Part shown: piece by piece, positions 20,001-33,019 of the stretch
Layout of the letters: each line of letters starts with the position of its first letter
How positions within the stretch are numbered: position 1 is the stretch's first letter
Notes under the pieces: generated by a model
Told to the model about the DNA's origin: nothing
Seen by the model: only the letters and a program-made list of their open reading frames with translations
The model's database searches: none
Program-made: the position numbers and the translations under genes
DNA from: a virus
Lineage: Duplodnaviria > Caudoviricetes
IMG/VR virus record: IMGVR_UViG_3300020463_000001
Coordinates: 32,001 to 96,000 of that record
Reading direction: 5' to 3' (one strand)
Length of the DNA: 64,000 bases

Positions 20001-20085
20001 GGCGGGGTTCCCGAGCGGTCAAAGGGATCAGACTGTAAATCTGACGGCTATGCCTTCGAAGGTTCGAATCCTTCCCCCGCCACCA
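20001..20085 (+). tRNA. tRNA-Tyr (GTA)
   Basis: GGCGGGG/CCCCGCC acceptor stem, TCAGA-ctgtaaa-TCTGA, long variable arm, TTCGAAT, CCA. Confidence 0.96.
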
Positions 20086-20277: not shown

Positions 20278-22752
20278 TTATACTGCACCGGATAGTGCTG
20301 AGTTGATTTTGTTAAAGCTGTTTTCAGTATTGTATGCTTTTGTTGGAATTACAGTACTGCTTGAATTTGATACATTATTGTTAGTAACATTTGACAGATT
20401 ATTGAGTATGGGACTGATATTGGTCGCTGCAACTTTTTCTATCGCGTTCTCCTTCATGGTCATCGCGGCCGCATTCTTCATTCCGGCCGAAGGTGAACTT
20501 ATATTTCCTAATTCTTGCGTAGGAGCCCCAGAAACTTGTTGCATGGGTGTGGATTCTCTAGCAGGAATAACTGCACCCCCACTGTCTCCAACACTCTGAG
20601 AAGAACTCTGTGTTCCTTGAGCGAGTTCTGTGGGTATGATCGATACATTTGCGTTCTCAGGAGAAGATAAATCTGGTGAAATTCCTGTTACATTTTGGTT
20701 CACTGGGGTACTGGATCCATCTACAGAAACTCCATCTCTTATCGCAGTAACATTTTCTTGATTAGTATTTTCTGTTGTCGCTGGAGTTATATTTGATTGG
20801 GGTTCGTCATCTCCGCCGAAACCCAGAAAGTTTGATACACTATCTCCCACATTACCTATAGCATCTCCTACTTTTCCTGCAACTTCTTTTCCTGTTTCTA
20901 GTGCCTTTTGTGCTCCATCTTTTATATTATTTCCGACATTTTTTACGGCGTCCACGGGGCCCTTAATAATACCTAATACTTTTTCTACTAAGTTGCTAAA
21001 AAATTCTTTGATAGAATCAAATGCGGAACTTATCGCCCCGCTGACTTTTTCTGGAATTGATGAAATAAATTCACCAATCTTTTGAGGAAAATCTGAAGTT
21101 ATAAACGCAACTGCGGCAGCAATTCCAGCGCCTACTGCCATTATTTTTAATGCAACTGGACTGAACAACATAGAAAGAACTCTAGGAATTCCCATCAAAA
21201 ATCTCAAAACTCCCTTAAACATACCAATGCCACCGGCAATTGATTCAAATGCCCCCTTACTTTCTTCTCTTGATTCTTCTGCACTCTCTATCGAATCTTC
21301 TAGAAGAGATGATTGTTTTCTTTCTACTCGTAAATTTGCTTGGTCAGATCTCTTTTTTTCTCTTTGAGTTTCTATTGCACTGAGTTCTCCTTCCGATTGT
21401 TGAGACCCCAAATATTCTAATAAATCTCGTATCTCTTGAAGAAAGGGGGAACTCACAGGTACTTCAGAATCTCCGGAAGATTCTTCTGTTCTAACTGGTG
21501 TTATTTGTGGAACCTCAGACGAAGATTCTATTGTTTCTCTAGTGATACTTTGCTCGCCCGCAGCACCAGCGACAGTTTCTCTAGAAATATCAGACACATT
21601 GGATATATTATTATCTGCTCCTTCTCTGATAGTTGATACTTGAGAGGTATCTATAGTATTACTTTGTTCGCCCGGAGCTCCTGTAATAGTTTCTCTAATA
21701 GTTGATACTTGAGAGGTATCTATAGTATTACTTTGTTCGCCCGGAGCTCCTGTAATAGTTTCTCTAGAAGTATCAGAGACATTGGATACATTATTGTCTG
21801 CCCCTTCTCTTGTAGATGATATTCGAGTTGTGTCTGTAGATTGCCCAGAAATTTGAGTTATATCTGGCGCAGTTTGATTTGTTATTTGATTTACCTCTGC
21901 CGAGTCTGCTTCAATTTCTGTTATAGGAGAAACTCTTTCTTGGTCTGTAGGTTGCAAATCTAATCCTACACTGTCTCTCAGTTCCTGTATCCTTTTTTGT
22001 TCCGCTTGGGCGTTTTCTCTTTGTTCTTTTGCAATCTTGGATTGTTCTATAATTCTGTCTCTTTCTTCATTATAGATTTGTTCTCTGGTCTTATTAGCCT
22101 CTTCTGCCTTCTTTTGTATATCTTCTTCGGAGAGATTTAATTTATTTTGGACATCAGATTCTGAAATCTGTTCTCTCAGAATTCTTCTTTCTTCTGAATC
22201 AATTCTTTCCTGCTCTCTAAAAAGTTCTCTTTGTTTTTCTCTAATTTCTTTTTCTTGACGTTTCTTCTTTCTGAAATTTCGGAACGCAACTACCCCCTTT
22301 CTTACACTATCGCCCAAGAATTTAACTCCTAACGCAAGGATAGGACTATCGGAAACCACACCAGCGACTACCGCACTAATATTAGTTACGCCTTCAGTGA
22401 GAGTATCTGTAATCTTTGCGCCGACATCATTCATCAACGAAGAATCCGATTTAACTCGTTGGTCATGCATTTGGATTAGTGATTGAAATCTTTGTTTGTC
22501 AGAATCCCCGACTTCTTTGGAGTCTCCAATTAACTTTGCAATATTCGCCATTTCCTTTCTACTGGCTCTGCGCTCTTTTGCGTCCATGTCTCCCTGTTTT
22601 GATATCAGTTCTGATACTTGTCGCAGAGCCTCATTTGTGGTATTGGATTCCATTTCGCCAGAGGCTTTGTCTAGACTCTCAGACAGACCCCGATAGTCCA
22701 TATTTACGGATTCTAATTTATCGATTACTGAGTCTAGACTTGCTTCAGCCAT
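20278..22752 (-). CDS. gp29-like baseplate hub / tape-measure protein
   Basis: Coiled coil, low-complexity and amphipathic segments; lies downstream of gp26/gp51. Confidence 0.55.
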   Translation of the reverse strand: MAEASLDSVIDKLESVNMDYRGLSESLDKASGEMESNTTNEALRQVSELISKQGDMDAKERRASRKEMANIAKLIGDSKEVGDSDKQRFQSLIQMHDQRVKSDSSLMNDVGAKITDTLTEGVTNISAVVAGVVSDSPILALGVKFLGDSVRKGVVAFRNFRKKKRQEKEIREKQRELFREQERIDSEERRILREQISESDVQNKLNLSEEDIQKKAEEANKTREQIYNEERDRIIEQSKIAKEQRENAQAEQKRIQELRDSVGLDLQPTDQERVSPITEIEADSAEVNQITNQTAPDITQISGQSTDTTRISSTREGADNNVSNVSDTSRETITGAPGEQSNTIDTSQVSTIRETITGAPGEQSNTIDTSQVSTIREGADNNISNVSDISRETVAGAAGEQSITRETIESSSEVPQITPVRTEESSGDSEVPVSSPFLQEIRDLLEYLGSQQSEGELSAIETQREKKRSDQANLRVERKQSSLLEDSIESAEESREESKGAFESIAGGIGMFKGVLRFLMGIPRVLSMLFSPVALKIMAVGAGIAAAVAFITSDFPQKIGEFISSIPEKVSGAISSAFDSIKEFFSNLVEKVLGIIKGPVDAVKNVGNNIKDGAQKALETGKEVAGKVGDAIGNVGDSVSNFLGFGGDDEPQSNITPATTENTNQENVTAIRDGVSVDGSSTPVNQNVTGISPDLSSPENANVSIIPTELAQGTQSSSQSVGDSGGAVIPARESTPMQQVSGAPTQELGNISSPSAGMKNAAAMTMKENAIEKVAATNISPILNNLSNVTNNNVSNSSSTVIPTKAYNTENSFNKINSALSGAV
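21629..21766 (-). repeat. two perfect 69-nt tandem copies (RETITGAPGEQSNTIDTSQVSTI)
   Basis: Period 69 nt (21629 vs 21698); degenerate flanking copies. Confidence 0.9.
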
Positions 22753-23072
22753 TATTTTTCGCCGTTAAAGGATTTGTTTGATTTACTTGTTCCGGCATAC
22801 AGACCAAACCAGGCAGCACCCGCCCCAACAATCACTGAGATAAGACCGGATTGTTCCATAGATGGTGCTGGAAGATCCATATACCAAAGAACTGTTTTGT
22901 ATAATAAGAATATATATACAGATAAGAATAATCTTGGAAAAATTCTCCAAGCATCTACTGCAGCAGCAAGATGAATCATTTTTTTGTATGGATTACTTCC
23001 GCTGTTTACTGTATCTGTGTCAATTTCTAGATCTATTTTAACTTTTTTTGTTAAAGGTTTTTCTACTGCCAT
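22752..23072 (-). CDS. 2-TM membrane protein (DAWRIFPR), possible holin
   Basis: Two hydrophobic helices and charged termini. Confidence 0.55.
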   Translation of the reverse strand: MAVEKPLTKKVKIDLEIDTDTVNSGSNPYKKMIHLAAAVDAWRIFPRLFLSVYIFLLYKTVLWYMDLPAPSMEQSGLISVIVGAGAAWFGLYAGTSKSNKSFNGEK

Positions 23073-23081
23073 AATAATTTC

Positions 23082-23243
23082 CTATTTTTTCATTCTATCT
23101 TTTTCTTCTTGTAGATAGTTCAAGAGCATTGATACATAGATTTCTCTTTCCCACGGCATCATGTTCTCTAATTCTGTCAGACTATATTTATGGTGTTGCA
23201 TCAATGCGAAGTTCGTCTGATAGAGAGAATATAATGTTTCATG
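23082..23243 (-). CDS. 51: gp51-like baseplate hub assembly protein frame (first ATG at 23201; possibly reached by -1 frameshift)
   Basis: HETLYSLYQTNFALMQHHKYSLTELENMMPWEREIYV..L..YL.EE; absent from the ORF track. Confidence 0.8.
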   Translation of the reverse strand, partial: HETLYSLYQTNFALMQHHKYSLTELENMMPWEREIYVSMLLNYLQEEKDRMKK

Positions 23244-23251
23244 ATATAAAC

Positions 23252-23983
23252 CTATACGAAAAAATCGGTGATTCCTCGTAGTTTAAAGGTATTTGTCCAT
23301 CCACAATCAGGACATTTCACAACTGCATCAGTTACGCACTGAGGCATAGTCTCAAAAAAAGTATTTATCTTCTGAAACTGCATTTGCGACAAAGATTCTA
23401 GAAATTCAGAAACTTCTTCATCATTAGAATCCGCAATATCATAAACTTCATCGCCATCATAGATATATTCGATACAATTTTTTAACATTTTCATTGTATC
23501 TTCAAATGTATTCAGATTCTGAACACCCTTAAGGATTTTAAAATCTGGATACTTCATTATCACACCAATAGTATCTGTTAAATCAATTCTATTTGTATGA
23601 TCCTCATTATTTTCAATTTCAACATTGTCGAGATTGATATCAAATCTAACATCTTTCTCAGTAGTTGATCCGTCTTCGGAACCAGCCGGACAGTCATGTT
23701 TATAATTTAACTGTACGATGTTTCCTACAGACTTACTACGAATGTTGACAAACAAATACTCTATATCAAATGTCGCAAGACTTTCAATCTTTACGCCTTT
23801 GGTAATAATGCAGTTCGCAATAATTTGTTTTGCTGCATCTACTTGTTCTTCAACATCGTCTCCTTCGTTAGCCATCAATAGAATCTTTTCTTCCCTAACC
23901 AAAAAAGGTCTAAACTTGATTTTTTTCTTGGTTGACGGAATTGTAAGATTATAAGTTGGCGTATCTAACTTAGGTAGAGCCAT
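23252..23983 (-). CDS. 26: baseplate hub subunit gp26
   Basis: MALPKLDTPTY.LTIPSTKKKIKFRPFLVREEKILL, DIEYLFVNIRSKSVG, VIMKYP, C-terminal CPDC. Confidence 0.92.
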   Translation of the reverse strand: MALPKLDTPTYNLTIPSTKKKIKFRPFLVREEKILLMANEGDDVEEQVDAAKQIIANCIITKGVKIESLATFDIEYLFVNIRSKSVGNIVQLNYKHDCPAGSEDGSTTEKDVRFDINLDNVEIENNEDHTNRIDLTDTIGVIMKYPDFKILKGVQNLNTFEDTMKMLKNCIEYIYDGDEVYDIADSNDEEVSEFLESLSQMQFQKINTFFETMPQCVTDAVVKCPDCGWTNTFKLRGITDFFV

Positions 23984-24022: not shown

Positions 24023-24688
24023 TTAGTCTGACTTTCTCCACTTGCGATATGCCATTGTGACAGGTAAACTTGCAATTTCTTCTGATGCGTATGCGTAGGT
24101 TATCTGTCCAATAGAAATCGGGTATGCCTCTTCAAAGGTCACAGAATAATTTGAAAAGTGTTCTAGTCCTTTATCTTCTAAACTTCCAAGTGTTTGTTTA
24201 ACTTTATCTGTTGTAGACTGAGATTCATTTTGATTTGAAGTTCTATCATATGAGTAGAATGTACAGTCTTTGACGATATCATCGTAGTATGACACATATG
24301 CAGTTTTATAACTTATCGCCAAATCCATCCATGCACTGAAGAAATCTCTTTCTTTCAAATTTTTACTTAAATATACATTGAATGACAAATCTTCATATAT
24401 CATTCCGTATGCGGATTTTCTTGGTGGGCCATAATATTGAACTTCTTCTGTAGCGAGTTGTTTGCCAGGCAGTTCTAGATTATCAATCCTTAGAGTCAAG
24501 TTTTCTGTCATTCCATCTCTAAGAGTAGATGGAAGTCCATCTGGATACGGTATACTTAATGCATAAGTATTGGGTATTAATAAGTCATTAGATACTCTAG
24601 AAGTAAAATTGTCTATACTAAATTTTCCTCCTCTTTTGAGGATAGTACCTCCGTAAAGGTTACTACTTGTTGGTGAATTCCCTGCCAT
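24023..24688 (-). CDS. 54: tail tube initiator gp54-like
   Basis: LELPGK, FFSAWMD, FEEAYPISIG, VTMAYRKW (gp19/gp54 fold). Confidence 0.75.
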   Translation of the reverse strand: MAGNSPTSSNLYGGTILKRGGKFSIDNFTSRVSNDLLIPNTYALSIPYPDGLPSTLRDGMTENLTLRIDNLELPGKQLATEEVQYYGPPRKSAYGMIYEDLSFNVYLSKNLKERDFFSAWMDLAISYKTAYVSYYDDIVKDCTFYSYDRTSNQNESQSTTDKVKQTLGSLEDKGLEHFSNYSVTFEEAYPISIGQITYAYASEEIASLPVTMAYRKWRKSD

Positions 24689-25300: not shown

Positions 25301-26695
25301 TTATTTTCGATAAACTTTCACAGGAAGTTCAGTATAACCTCTGACAAATGATGAAAAAGTGCGTTTCTCTTCTCCTACAACCTCTATTCGATCAAATCTT
25401 TTCATAATTTCTTCCCAGAGAACCTTGAGTTGTAGTTCTGCGGTTCTGTTTCCCATACAACGATGGATTCCAAAACCAAATGATAAATGATTACGAGCAT
25501 TCTCTCTATCAATGATTAGATCTTCTCCATTGGGGAAAACTTCTTCGTCACGATTTCCGGAAAGATACCACATTAGTATCTGGTCATGTTTTTTGATTTC
25601 TTTGTCTCTGATCATGCAGTCATTGTTTGCGGTTCGTCTCATATATGCGAGAGGGGTTTGCCATCTAATAATTTCTGATACCATATTCGGTATCAATCCT
25701 AGATCTCCTTTTAGTTTTTCGTATTCTGACGGAAACAGGTTAAGTCCATGAACACCAGCAGTCATAGAATTTCTTGTAGTATCATTTCCTCCCACAATCA
25801 GTAGAATAAGATTACCTAGAAACTCCATTGGCTCCATATCTTTTGTGTGTTCTCCCTTGACCATCATAGAAACAAAGTCATTTGTGGGTTCTTTCTTTCT
25901 CATTTCCCAGATTTCGGTAAAATACTGAAGACATTCTACTAATTCGTCAATTCTTTGTTGTTCGGTATCGATAATTCCTGCGCCAGGCACTGCAGTCGCA
26001 ACATCAGACCATCGTGTTAACTTTCTGCGTTCTTCGAATGGAAAATCAAAGAGAGTTGCGAGCATTTGTGTAGTCAGTTCAATAGAAACTTTGTCTACCC
26101 AATTAAATGTCTCATCTTCGGGCAAAGAATCTAAAACTGCACCAGTCCTTTCTCTTATCATGGGTTCTAGTCCCATCATACTTCTCATAGAGACTACCGG
26201 AGCAACTGTTCGTCGTTGCAGATCATGTTTGGGCGGATCCATTGCGATAAACAAAGAGATATCTAACGAACCTTCTGGACGGGGACTTCCGACAGGATAC
26301 CCTATTGTTATCATTGGTTCAGAAGAAAACTCTTGGTGATTCATATCAACTTTTTTGATATCATCATATTTTGTCAATGACCAGAATCTTCCAGCAACTT
26401 CTGTCTCATTAAAGTGTATTGGATCTTCTTCTCTAAGTCTTTTAAACATTTCAAGACTTTTGTTTTCTTCAAAGAGTCTATTCCATACTGGGTTGAGTGT
26501 CTCTAGAGGAACATCGTATGCGGAAGGAATTTCACCAGTAAATTCATCTTGTTCTGATCCTGCTCTGGCAAATCCCGCAGCTGCAGCGGATTCTCTTTCT
26601 TCTAGTACCGCATAGTGTTCGCCATCATTGCCATTACTACCGATGACATCCATTCTTTTCTCATCTTCGTCTGTCCACATTGGTTCGTTGCTCAT
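25301..26695 (-). CDS. cytochrome P450, CYP153-like
   Basis: FIAMDPPKHD, VSIELTTQMLATLFDFP, LLIVGGNDTTRN, EIIRWQTPLAYMRR, SGNRDE, HLSFGFGIHRCMG; GGAGG SD. Confidence 0.95.
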   Translation of the reverse strand: MSNEPMWTDEDEKRMDVIGSNGNDGEHYAVLEERESAAAAGFARAGSEQDEFTGEIPSAYDVPLETLNPVWNRLFEENKSLEMFKRLREEDPIHFNETEVAGRFWSLTKYDDIKKVDMNHQEFSSEPMITIGYPVGSPRPEGSLDISLFIAMDPPKHDLQRRTVAPVVSMRSMMGLEPMIRERTGAVLDSLPEDETFNWVDKVSIELTTQMLATLFDFPFEERRKLTRWSDVATAVPGAGIIDTEQQRIDELVECLQYFTEIWEMRKKEPTNDFVSMMVKGEHTKDMEPMEFLGNLILLIVGGNDTTRNSMTAGVHGLNLFPSEYEKLKGDLGLIPNMVSEIIRWQTPLAYMRRTANNDCMIRDKEIKKHDQILMWYLSGNRDEEVFPNGEDLIIDRENARNHLSFGFGIHRCMGNRTAELQLKVLWEEIMKRFDRIEVVGEEKRTFSSFVRGYTELPVKVYRK

Positions 26696-26709: not shown

Positions 26710-27150
26710 TTAACTATTTAGTTTGGGTAAAATATGTTTTTCGGTGATGATCTTAAAATCCCATCCCTTCATTTCGCAGTATTTCTCTGCGGCCTTCCAT
26801 TTTGCTTCATTGACACCCCAAGTCTTCATCTCATTGATATATCTTTTCTGATTTTTCTTTTTTCTGGGTGGTTTTGTTTCTCGATTTGGTTTGATTTCAA
26901 TCATACTAACTTTATCTTTCGTTTTTACTATAAAGTCTGGATAATATCTATGTATTTTATGATCTATGGGAGACAAATAGGGAATTACAATTTCTTCACT
27001 TGCCCATGAAAGAATGAGGGGATTTCTATCGCAATAGATCATAAATCTTCTCTCCCAACTGGAGCGATACACTATTTTCGATAGATCACCTATGTATTTT
27101 TTGGGATTCTCTGGAGTATATCTACCTTTGTAGGTAAATTTCCGCAACAT
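26710..27150 (-). CDS. 4: head completion nuclease gp4
   Basis: YKGRYTPENPKKY.GD...IVYRSSWE, WASEEI.IPY, HRYYPDF, IEIKP, NEAKW.AA. Confidence 0.95.
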   Translation of the reverse strand: MLRKFTYKGRYTPENPKKYIGDLSKIVYRSSWERRFMIYCDRNPLILSWASEEIVIPYLSPIDHKIHRYYPDFIVKTKDKVSMIEIKPNRETKPPRKKKNQKRYINEMKTWGVNEAKWKAAEKYCEMKGWDFKIITEKHILPKLNS

Positions 27151-31154: not shown

Positions 31155-33019
31155 TGGCAAGAACTATTCAAATATCAGATCTTGATTTTAAAGATATTAA
31201 AAGAAACATAATTTCATATATGAAGGCCGACTCGACTTTTTCGGATTACGATTTTGAGGCTTCTGGTTTGAATACTCTAATGGATATATTATCGTATAAT
31301 ACACATTACACTTCATATTACTTAAATATGGTTGCAAATGAAATGTTCTTGGATACTGCAAGAATCCGAGAGAATGTGGTTTCCAGAGCGAAAATGTTGG
31401 GCTATGAATCCAGATCTAATGTCGCCCCGAAAGCCGTTGTCTCAATTGTTATAGAAAGGGTTGGCCCGTTAGAAAGCGAAACATCTACTGTTCTAATTAA
31501 CAACGAATTCAAGTTTTCTGCAAACTTGGATGGTGTTTCTTATAATTTTTTTCCAGAAGTTCCGAGGTCTGCCCCAGTATTATCGTCCACTGTTGCAAAT
31601 GACGGAATTACTGTAACTACTCGATATTTTTTAGGAGACTTGGTTTTGGTGCAGGGAAATCCAGTCACAGAATTTTTTATAGTAGATACGACTAATCCAA
31701 ATCAAAGATTTATTTTGTCTAATGCAGATGCGGATACTTCTTCAATAAAAGTTACTGTGCGAGAAGATTTGACTACTGACGAATTTACAGAATTCAAAAG
31801 ACCAACAGATACTATGGATTTAAGTGATGTATCTACTTCCTTCTTTGTCCAAGAAGTCGAAAGTGGCTTATATGAAATATTTTTCGGAGACGGAGTATTA
31901 GGAACCTCGTTAGAAAGTGGAAATTTGATTACAGTTGATTATTTAACTACATCCGGAGCAGCTGCAAATGGCATTGCAAAAATAAATACCAGCGCTACAG
32001 ACACAGATTTCAAAATAACAGAATTAACTACCGTAAATAAAGTTTATGGGGGTTCAAATAAAGAAACTACAGATTCTATCAAGTTTTATGCTCCTAGAAC
32101 TTTTGAAGGTCAAAATAGAGCAGTAACAGTAAGAGATTACAAAACAATTATACCTAAGATATACACGCAGTCATCCTCTGTAAATGTTTGGGGTGGAGAA
32201 GACAATGACCCTCCCCAATTTGGAAGAGTTTATATTTCAATCAAACCAAATGACGGAAGTTATCTTACAGATTTCGAAAAAACCACGATACAAAATAGAC
32301 TCAAAACAGACTATTCTATATTAACCATTCTTCCAGAAATTATTGATCCAAATTATACAAAACTTCTTGTATCCACTAATGTAAAATATGATAATGAGGC
32401 TACTATTCTTGGAGAAGACGAATTAAAAACAATAGTTTTAAACACTATCAAAACTTTTAGTGATACTTTTATGAACGAATTTGACAATTACTTCAGATAT
32501 TCTAATTTCATCAGTGCAATTGATAATTCTAATGACGCAATAACCAATAATACTACTACAGTTAACCTTCAGATTGAAAAGAAGATAACATTAAATGCCA
32601 GATCTCAATATGTTTATAATTTTAATAATGAGATTGCTGTCGGATCGATATCTTCCACTGGATTCAAGTCTATGAACTCAAATAATCTTTTATATATTGA
32701 AGATACTTCTGATACTGCTCTCAAGTTTTACTATACAGATTCTAATGGAAAGAAAGTATATGTTGATACGGTGTCGGGAACGATAGACCACAAAAAAGGA
32801 AATATAATCCTAAACGATCTCACTATAATAGAATTAGAAAATAATTCAAGTCTTTTAAAAATAAAAATGACTCCAAAAGATCAAGATGTATTCCCTAGAA
32901 GAAATCAAATATTAGTTATCGATACACAAGAAGTATCAATAAATATGATGGCAGATACTGATGATTATAATAATAATTACGACATCACTACTCAAAGCGT
33001 AAGTATCATCAGAAGATAA
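31154..33019 (+). CDS. 6: baseplate wedge gp6
   Basis: LDFKDIK, DYDFEASGL..LMDIL.YNTHY, NEMFLDTA..R.NVVS.AK.LGY, QNRAVT..DY. Confidence 0.95.
   Translation: MARTIQISDLDFKDIKRNIISYMKADSTFSDYDFEASGLNTLMDILSYNTHYTSYYLNMVANEMFLDTARIRENVVSRAKMLGYESRSNVAPKAVVSIVIERVGPLESETSTVLINNEFKFSANLDGVSYNFFPEVPRSAPVLSSTVANDGITVTTRYFLGDLVLVQGNPVTEFFIVDTTNPNQRFILSNADADTSSIKVTVREDLTTDEFTEFKRPTDTMDLSDVSTSFFVQEVESGLYEIFFGDGVLGTSLESGNLITVDYLTTSGAAANGIAKINTSATDTDFKITELTTVNKVYGGSNKETTDSIKFYAPRTFEGQNRAVTVRDYKTIIPKIYTQSSSVNVWGGEDNDPPQFGRVYISIKPNDGSYLTDFEKTTIQNRLKTDYSILTILPEIIDPNYTKLLVSTNVKYDNEATILGEDELKTIVLNTIKTFSDTFMNEFDNYFRYSNFISAIDNSNDAITNNTTTVNLQIEKKITLNARSQYVYNFNNEIAVGSISSTGFKSMNSNNLLYIEDTSDTALKFYYTDSNGKKVYVDTVSGTIDHKKGNIILNDLTIIELENNSSLLKIKMTPKDQDVFPRRNQILVIDTQEVSINMMADTDDYNNNYDITTQSVSIIRR

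Follow-up and report, generated by a model that had tools for sequence, protein, structure and literature searches.

The window, a stretch of 64,000 nucleotides covering positions 32,001 to 96,000 of IMG/VR virus record IMGVR_UViG_3300020463_000001 (Caudoviricetes; a marine, uncultured phage of the T4-like group), carries on its minus strand a gp26 gene of the T4-like type and, overlapping the 3' end of this gene in the −1 frame, a coding sequence that resembles the end of gp51. An earlier note, made from the sequence alone, had proposed that the two are joined by a programmed −1 frameshift and that gp26 and gp26-51 are a pair of tail assembly chaperones of the phage lambda G/GT type. The features at the junction are the following.

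23252 to 23983, minus strand: gp26, the predicted short chaperone form (TAC-N), 243 amino acids and 27.8 kDa, matching PF12322 and phrog_150.
23283 to 23285, minus strand: TAA stop codon closing the −1 frame, six codons 5' of the heptamer.
23258 to 23264, minus strand: slippery heptamer T_TTT_TTC, the proposed slip site, read directly in the codons GAT TTT TTC.
23082 to 23258, minus strand: gp51-like tail, the −1 frame extension, 58 codons plus a stop codon (23084–23082), reading RIGLYHE...DRMKK.
23199 to 23204, minus strand: the earliest canonical start codons of the −1 frame, TTG at 23204 and ATG at 23201, without a Shine-Dalgarno sequence.

Residues 9–242 of gp26 match positions 2–218 of the 219 positions of the PF12322 (T4_baseplate) profile with an E-value of 1.5e-64, and the ATG of the gene is preceded by the Shine-Dalgarno sequence AGGAG. 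Its 3' end reads GAT TTT TTC GTA TAG, with the TAG at 23254–23252. The T at 23264, the TTT at 23263–23261 and the TTC at 23260–23258 form a heptamer that reads X_XXY_YYZ in the gp26 frame; reading the minus strand thus confirms the gp26 ending and the in-frame T-TTT-TTC described earlier. The claim that the −1 frame continues as gp51-like sequence also holds. This frame stays open for 58 codons, and its product matches phrog_634, 'baseplate hub assembly catalyst' (E 7.7e-27), and positions 232–276 of phrog_150. Read after the slip, it gives FF-RIGLYHETLYSLYQTNFALMQHHKYSL...MKK. The predicted fusion would consist of gp26 residues 1–242 followed by the tail, 300 amino acids and 34.9 kDa in all, with the junction ...GITDFF/RIGLYHE.

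Because the TAA at 23285–23283 closes the −1 frame upstream, this frame can be entered only at or after the heptamer. Between the TAA and the heptamer it contains no ATG, GTG or TTG, and its first canonical start codons, the TTG at 23204 and the ATG at 23201, are codons 20 and 21 counting from the first Phe of the heptamer, so that the earlier description of a start-less first part behind a TAA is accurate. Initiation at either codon loses 18 conserved residues (RIGLY...NFA). Shine-Dalgarno sequences are present for gp26 and for the next gene, and missing for the internal TTG and ATG. The complete virus record (200,733 bp, with terminal repeats and a CheckV completeness of 100%) contains a single PF12322 gene; a gp51-type protein, if needed, must therefore derive from the gp26 locus. 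Scans for promoters and terminators gave no signal above chance.

Related loci were collected with the gp26 protein as query, 66 of them from IMG/VR, and complemented with 12 GenBank or RefSeq phage records. Both parts are present in 62 loci, namely the window, 59 IMG/VR contigs, S-WAM1 and S-PM2. Without exception, the −1 frame with respect to gp26 encodes the gp51-like peptide, and TTTTTTC or TTTTTTT lies at the gp26 3' end. The −1 tail and TTTTTTY are also present in eight distant T4-like phages, namely Vibrio phages D479 and ValKK3, Sinorhizobium phage phiM12, Pseudomonas phage pf16, Aeromonas phage avDM12, the freshwater cyanophage S-CRM01, Pelagibacter phage Mosig and Synechococcus phage MA01. 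All 72 loci examined have TTTTTTY at the same position. Dereplication at 90% identity left 33 junctions, from marine contigs, cyanophages and T4-like phages of Vibrio, Sinorhizobium, Pseudomonas, Aeromonas and Pelagibacter, and these are the basis of the counts that follow.

An alignment of gp26 3' ends, the check suggested in the earlier note, yields the in-frame TTTTTTY in 33 of 33 junctions: TTTTTTC in 29 and TTTTTTT in four, with a T run that is never longer than seven. The codon 5' of the run is GAT, AGT, TCT, AAT or GCT, encoding Asp, Ser, Asn or Ala. It is NNT in every junction, while the same codon families end in T with a frequency of 0.65 elsewhere in gp26. The first Phe of the heptamer is likewise TTT in all 33 (background frequency of TTT, 0.71), and other Phe-Phe pairs within gp26 use all four codon combinations. 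A naive calculation for the T-ending codon plus TTT gives a probability of about 10^-14.7 for sequences that are in fact not independent of each other. The codon before the run has undergone at least four amino-acid replacements with the T kept each time, and a T-ending codon maintained over four amino acids goes beyond what protein conservation explains. In nearly all lineages the gp26 stop codon is kept at the heptamer or at most two codons past it. The heptamer signal is deeply conserved, far more than expected by chance.

The constraint on the sequence changes frame at the same place. Upstream of the site, the nucleotide entropies at gp26 codon positions 1, 2 and 3 are 1.28, 1.03 and 1.62, peaking at position 3. 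Beginning 13 nt past the first base of the heptamer, they are 0.80, 1.56 and 1.00 in gp26-frame numbering, and the peak corresponds to position 3 of the −1 frame. The entropy peak moves frame, and the −1 frame therefore takes over the protein-coding constraint as soon as the gp26 stop codon is passed, in the window about 45 nt before any start codon. The tail is conserved from its first residue onwards, with the pattern FFR(I/V/L)x(L/M)xH..L..YY..NF.LMQHHKYSL, and 32 of the 33 junctions have no start codon upstream of the site in the −1 frame.

These data bear on a reading without recoding, in which a small gp51 would be initiated separately, at the ATA at 23255–23253 or at the TTG or ATG at 23204 and 23201, and the T run would reflect a conserved Asp-Phe-Phe ending of gp26. 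GenBank records do give gp51 a coding sequence of its own (58 amino acids in S-PM2, 60 in S-CRM01), and some relatives have an ATG within three to six codons of the site. The first ATG, GTG or TTG past the site is not conserved, however, but varies among relatives from codon 3 to codon 28, and in the window its use would delete the 18 conserved residues and proceed without a Shine-Dalgarno sequence. A conserved independent start with its own Shine-Dalgarno sequence, which the earlier note had named as an argument against frameshifting, was thus not encountered. The T-ending preceding codon, kept over four amino acids, also speaks against separate initiation. None of the 12 GenBank or RefSeq records marks a joined or slipped coding sequence, and the start given to gp51 differs between records. 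Several records, such as those of S-WAM1 and avDM12, omit gp51 because the frame has no start; in these two (S-WAM1, KU686210, 2511–2700; avDM12, OP380604, 1511–1778) the tail lies in an apparent intergenic gap of 190–270 bp.

Phage T4 provides a comparison in which the two proteins are encoded differently. Its genes 26 (208 amino acids) and 51 (249 amino acids) are separate, adjacent and divergently transcribed, and there is no slippery run, whereas the window phage has one gene and a start-less −1 frame. Residues 1–201 of T4 gp51 match PF12322 across the whole profile (E 3.9e-52), and its residues 200–248 align with the −1 peptide of the window from the first residue of the peptide (E 2e-5). 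T4 gp51 thus has a gp26-like domain and, after it, the tail, which is also the architecture of the predicted fusion. The alignments support T4 gp51 as the counterpart of the long form and T4 gp26 as that of the short form. T4 gp26 ends in ...KEFFELL, where the Phe-Phe pair is encoded by TTC TTT and is not slippery; Aeromonas phage phiAS4 also has a separate gp51 of 249 residues, and its gp26 ends without Phe-Phe. The heptamer is therefore missing only where the long form has a gene of its own, a natural control that favours frameshifting. Likewise, retention of Phe-Phe with non-slippery codons, the other adverse pattern named beforehand, was seen in T4 only, exactly where gp51 is a separate full-length gene. 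This, and the fact that the tail of T4 gp51 functions joined to a PF12322 domain, further reduces the case for a separately initiated small gp51, which we consider improbable. In T4, gp26 and gp51 are listed as hub assembly chaperones, and both are made, needed for assembly of the hub and tail, and absent from the virion, facts known for T4 only (PMC3004832). The gp51 of cyanophages and marine vibriophages was described as only about 20% of the normal length, with the first ~200 residues missing, and this was left unexplained (Sullivan et al. 2010, PMC3037559).

Some sequencing chemistries are prone to errors in homopolymer runs, and the frame break might be attributed to a sequencing or assembly error, or to a decaying gene, the true gene being a continuous gp26-51 frame. 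The same break is nevertheless present in 72 of 72 loci, from independent metagenomes and from finished genomes of cultured phages, and the gp26 stop codon stays within two codons of the heptamer in nearly all lineages. DNA contig X2 reproduces the run of six T residues without an indel, as do two contigs from RNA libraries that cover the site, X10 record 5 (22929–23812) and X17 record 12 (23008–23299), for which an RNA origin at this locus is unproven. The contigs rule out an assembly error and an edit in the majority of molecules, while being unable to reveal minority forms. By the comparative data, an artefact is already refuted in practice.

An AlphaFold2 model of gp26, calculated with 20 sequences, has a mean pLDDT of 85.7 and a pTM of 0.78. 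In an exhaustive VIA search against 48,161 chains, the first three ranks were taken by 3FGX_B (Z 8.2), 3KLU_A (Z 7.1) and 2OB9_B (Z 7.0), aligning to residues 1–95 of the model over 83–86 residues; the next, unrelated, entries had Z values of 5.5 or lower. According to PMC9603447, which cites Pell et al. 2013, structures have been solved for three phage tail assembly chaperones; that the top three matches are precisely these strengthens the support for the fold. Foldseek found no significant match for the model in the PDB, the lone sensible local superposition being with HK97 gp13 (2OB9; probability 0.72, E 1.1). With moderate confidence, the model suggests a tail assembly chaperone fold for the N-terminal domain of gp26.

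In the textbook −1 event, two tRNA-Phe slip in tandem, from UUU UUC to UUU UUU. A downstream stimulatory RNA structure is common at −1 frameshift sites and is not a defining feature of the G/GT type. For each of the 33 junctions, the 55 nt beginning 3 nt past the heptamer were folded and a z score was calculated against shuffled controls; scoring was done per sequence because the hairpins are clade-specific in sequence and register. The junctions have a mean z of −1.65, with 12 of 33 below −2, compared with mean values of −0.6 to +0.3 and 0–5 of 33 below −2 for control windows from the same loci. The hairpins start 5–9 nt past the site and their sequence differs by clade (z −5.4 in S-PM2, −5.8 in S-WAM1 and −4.3 in MA01). 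Strong hairpins, with z values of −3.6 to −5.8, are carried by many cyanophage clades, as shown by S-PM2 (L068, 2511–2570), S-WAM1 (L067), MA01 (L077) and the loci L015, L010 and L051, and no hairpin was found in the clade of the window, in Vibrio phage D479 or in the lineages L053–L062. Hairpin stimulators seem to have been repeatedly gained or lost around a fixed slip site.

A GAGGA sequence is located at 23283–23275 on the minus strand, about 9 nt 5' of the heptamer, which is the spacing of the internal Shine-Dalgarno stimulator of dnaX. GAGG or AGGG strings are found near the site in many relatives, although not universally. In the window, GAGGA shares bases with a Gly codon that hardly varies, and constraint on the protein may by itself explain why the string is conserved.

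Taken together, the sequence comparisons indicate that one gene of the window phage very probably yields two tail assembly chaperones, one short and one long, through a −1 slip on TTTTTTC. We assign a probability of roughly 0.7 to ribosomal frameshifting on the heptamer as the process that yields gp26 and gp26-51. Several observations weigh against this interpretation. No downstream structure is predicted in the window and its closest relatives, L005 and L006 (z +1.24, +1.27 and +0.61); the two z values obtained for the window itself, +1.24 and −0.25, do not indicate a stimulatory structure. RNAalifold found no structure common to the whole alignment of 29 junctions. In S-PM2, S-CRM01 and MA01, where an ATG occurs 3–6 codons past the site, a separately started small gp51 is possible. 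Z values of 7–8 are near the noise ceiling of VIA and can be reached by common structural arrangements. Finally, a homopolymeric U6 run, conserved as a pure run, could equally serve slippage by RNA polymerase.

Polymerase slippage would give the same two products if some transcripts gained one U in the U6 run. The absence of a downstream hairpin from the clade of the window is in keeping with it, and a few per cent of long form may suffice, lambda GT amounting to about 3–4% of G (PMC9603447). The title of Vladimirov et al. 2022 also points to a non-translational mechanism, although the PRFect paper (PMC10885494) takes the same title to mean separate genes. Set against this, 29 of 33 junctions have C at position 7 of the heptamer despite the preference for TTT as Phe codon (0.71), which indicates that the T run is held short. 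With six residues in the window, and six to seven and never more in the 33 lineages, it does not form the long homopolymer, usually of at least 8–9 residues, on which bacterial RNA polymerase slips. Many clades, moreover, have a hairpin at a spacing typical of ribosomal frameshift stimulators, and the RNA-library contigs X10 record 5 and X17 record 12 show no indel, though minor variants would be hidden in them. On balance, slippage of the polymerase appears unlikely, and ribosomal frameshifting remains our preferred explanation.

The genes around the junction, all on the minus strand, are in the order tube-like gene, gp26, gp51 frame, 106-residue open reading frame and tape-measure-like gene. 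The neighbours of the two frames are the following.

24023 to 24688, minus strand: tail-tube-like gene (gp54/gp48-type tube initiator), matching phrog_45 'tail tube' (E 9.6e-33), directly 5' of gp26.
22752 to 23072, minus strand: predicted membrane protein of 106 amino acids with a hydrophobic core, matching phrog_10198 (E 5.5e-23).
20278 to 22752, minus strand: tape-measure-like protein of 824 amino acids, with weak matches (E ~1.5e-4) to phrog_58 and phrog_4070 'tail length tape measure protein'.

The tube-like gene adjoins gp26 also in Vibrio, Sinorhizobium and Pelagibacter phages, and the syntenic gene of phiM12 is annotated as tape-measure-like. The slip site does lie upstream of the tape-measure-like gene, as the earlier note had it, but does not adjoin it, since the 106-residue gene (23072 to 22752) is located in between. 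Small open reading frames occupy this slot in phiM12 and Mosig as well; S-PM2, S-CRM01 and MA01 have none.

Beyond the tail genes, an intact cytochrome P450 gene is located at 25301–26695 on the minus strand (PF00067, E 2.4e-20), encoding the heme-binding motif FGFGIHRCMG. It is flanked by genes for the gp2 DNA end protector and for a TnsA-like endonuclease, amid phage morphogenesis genes. The latter gene, at 26710–27150 on the minus strand, encodes 146 residues and matches PF08722, the N-terminal domain of TnsA-like endonucleases (E 2.2e-22). The protein is possibly a nuclease of the homing or mobile type, and as such could account for the insertion of the P450 gene. Three tRNA genes are present, all on the plus strand: Tyr-GTA at 20001–20085, Gly-TCC at 1489–1563 and Thr-TGT at 1980–2055. 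The Tyr-GTA gene is on the strand opposite to that of the tape-measure-like gene, just beyond its 3' end. No tRNA-Phe gene was found in the 64-kb window.

Like that of lambda gpG/gpGT, the arrangement combines a heptamer of the form X_XXY_YYZ close to where the upstream frame ends, a −1 extension that lacks a start codon of its own and a place between tube-type and tape-measure genes, the tube-like gene occupying the slot of lambda V. It differs in that the extension of the window is short (58 residues) and in that a small membrane-protein gene precedes the tape-measure-like gene. Sequence similarity between gp26 and lambda gpG is undetectable, and gp26, at roughly double the length, has an additional C-terminal domain containing a Cys-x-x-Cys pair. 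With HK97 gp13, gp26 would have the chaperone fold in common. The slip site of lambda is G_GGA_AAG; the gpG/gpGT pair and the conserved −1 frameshift of tail assembly chaperone genes are said to have been described by Levin et al. in 1993 and by Xu, Hendrix and Duda in 2004. For phage P2, Christie et al. reportedly described in 2002 an E/E+E' frameshift on the T-rich run TTTTTTG. There too, a −1 slip on a T run just 5' of the tape measure gene is said to give two forms of a myovirus tail chaperone, whose protein family is unrelated by sequence to gp26. In the Vandenendeviridae and Andersonviridae, the tail chaperone frameshift has an invariant GTTTTT motif, the T run is at the 3' end of the short form, all genomes keep the −1 frame open, and the downstream open reading frame has been misannotated as a separate gene (PMC12846349, 2025). 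These are other phage families with other chaperone sequences.

The conserved heptamer, the start-less but constrained frame, the architecture of T4 gp51, the predicted fold and the gene position together support a lambda G/GT-like reading, and in this respect the central proposal of the earlier note, that gp26 and gp26-51 are such a pair, finds backing. Transposing the lambda mechanism to the window phage, most ribosomes would stop at the gp26 TAG and release the 243-residue short form. A minority would slip one base back on U_UUU_UUC, the tRNA-Phe molecules in the P- and A-sites re-pairing with UUU UUU. The slipped ribosomes would bypass the stop codon two codons further on and add 58 residues, giving a long form of 300 residues with the gp51 tail at its C-terminus. 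The two forms would then act like lambda G and GT in assembly of the tail, that is, of the baseplate hub. The N-terminal domain common to both may hold the tape-measure protein, and the tail of the rarer long form may dock this complex onto the growing hub or tube. A complex prediction for the 59-residue tail with the tube-like protein gave a score of 0.00, the fold of this partner being uncertain, a value that carries no weight either way on binding. That the slip takes place on the ribosome, its rate and the partner of the tail are points that we infer.

In the papers that cite it, the work of Vladimirov, Gautam and Davidson (Virology 2022, 566:9–15) is credited with identifying gp26 and gp51 as tail assembly chaperones of T4-like phages (PMC10885494, PMC12846349), and the report of poly-T frameshift signals in short-form genes of this phage group is also attributed to it (PMC12846349). 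As far as these citing papers convey its content, the earlier remark that no such frameshift had been established in T4-like phages no longer holds; this kind of gp26/gp51 frameshift is already published and the window is a good new example rather than a discovery. What is added here is the single-copy argument, the T4 and phiAS4 control, the periodicity of the frame switch, the fold match and an AT-rich marine clade without a hairpin. The added value is modest because the core idea had been published.

A further proposal, which we advance only tentatively, is that the one-gene frameshift layout is ancestral and much the commonest in T4-like phages, the separate genes 26 and 51 of T4 being a derived duplication, and that in the clade of the window the slip is ribosomal and takes place without a downstream structure, helped at most by the nearby stop codon or the upstream GAGG. 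If true, this would contrast with what the title of the 2022 paper by Vladimirov et al. conveys, and with the cyanophage clades that bear hairpins.

For the genome of the window, the frameshift reading would correct an annotation: the 'gp51' of marine T4-like phages would be the C-terminal tail of a 300-residue long form of gp26 and not a shrunken gene. More broadly, it would extend to the T4 lineage the rule for long-tailed phages, in which the tail chaperone is made in a short and a long version. The lineages that use frameshifting and those that have two genes, and those with and without a hairpin, would then offer natural comparisons for the study of frameshift stimulators.

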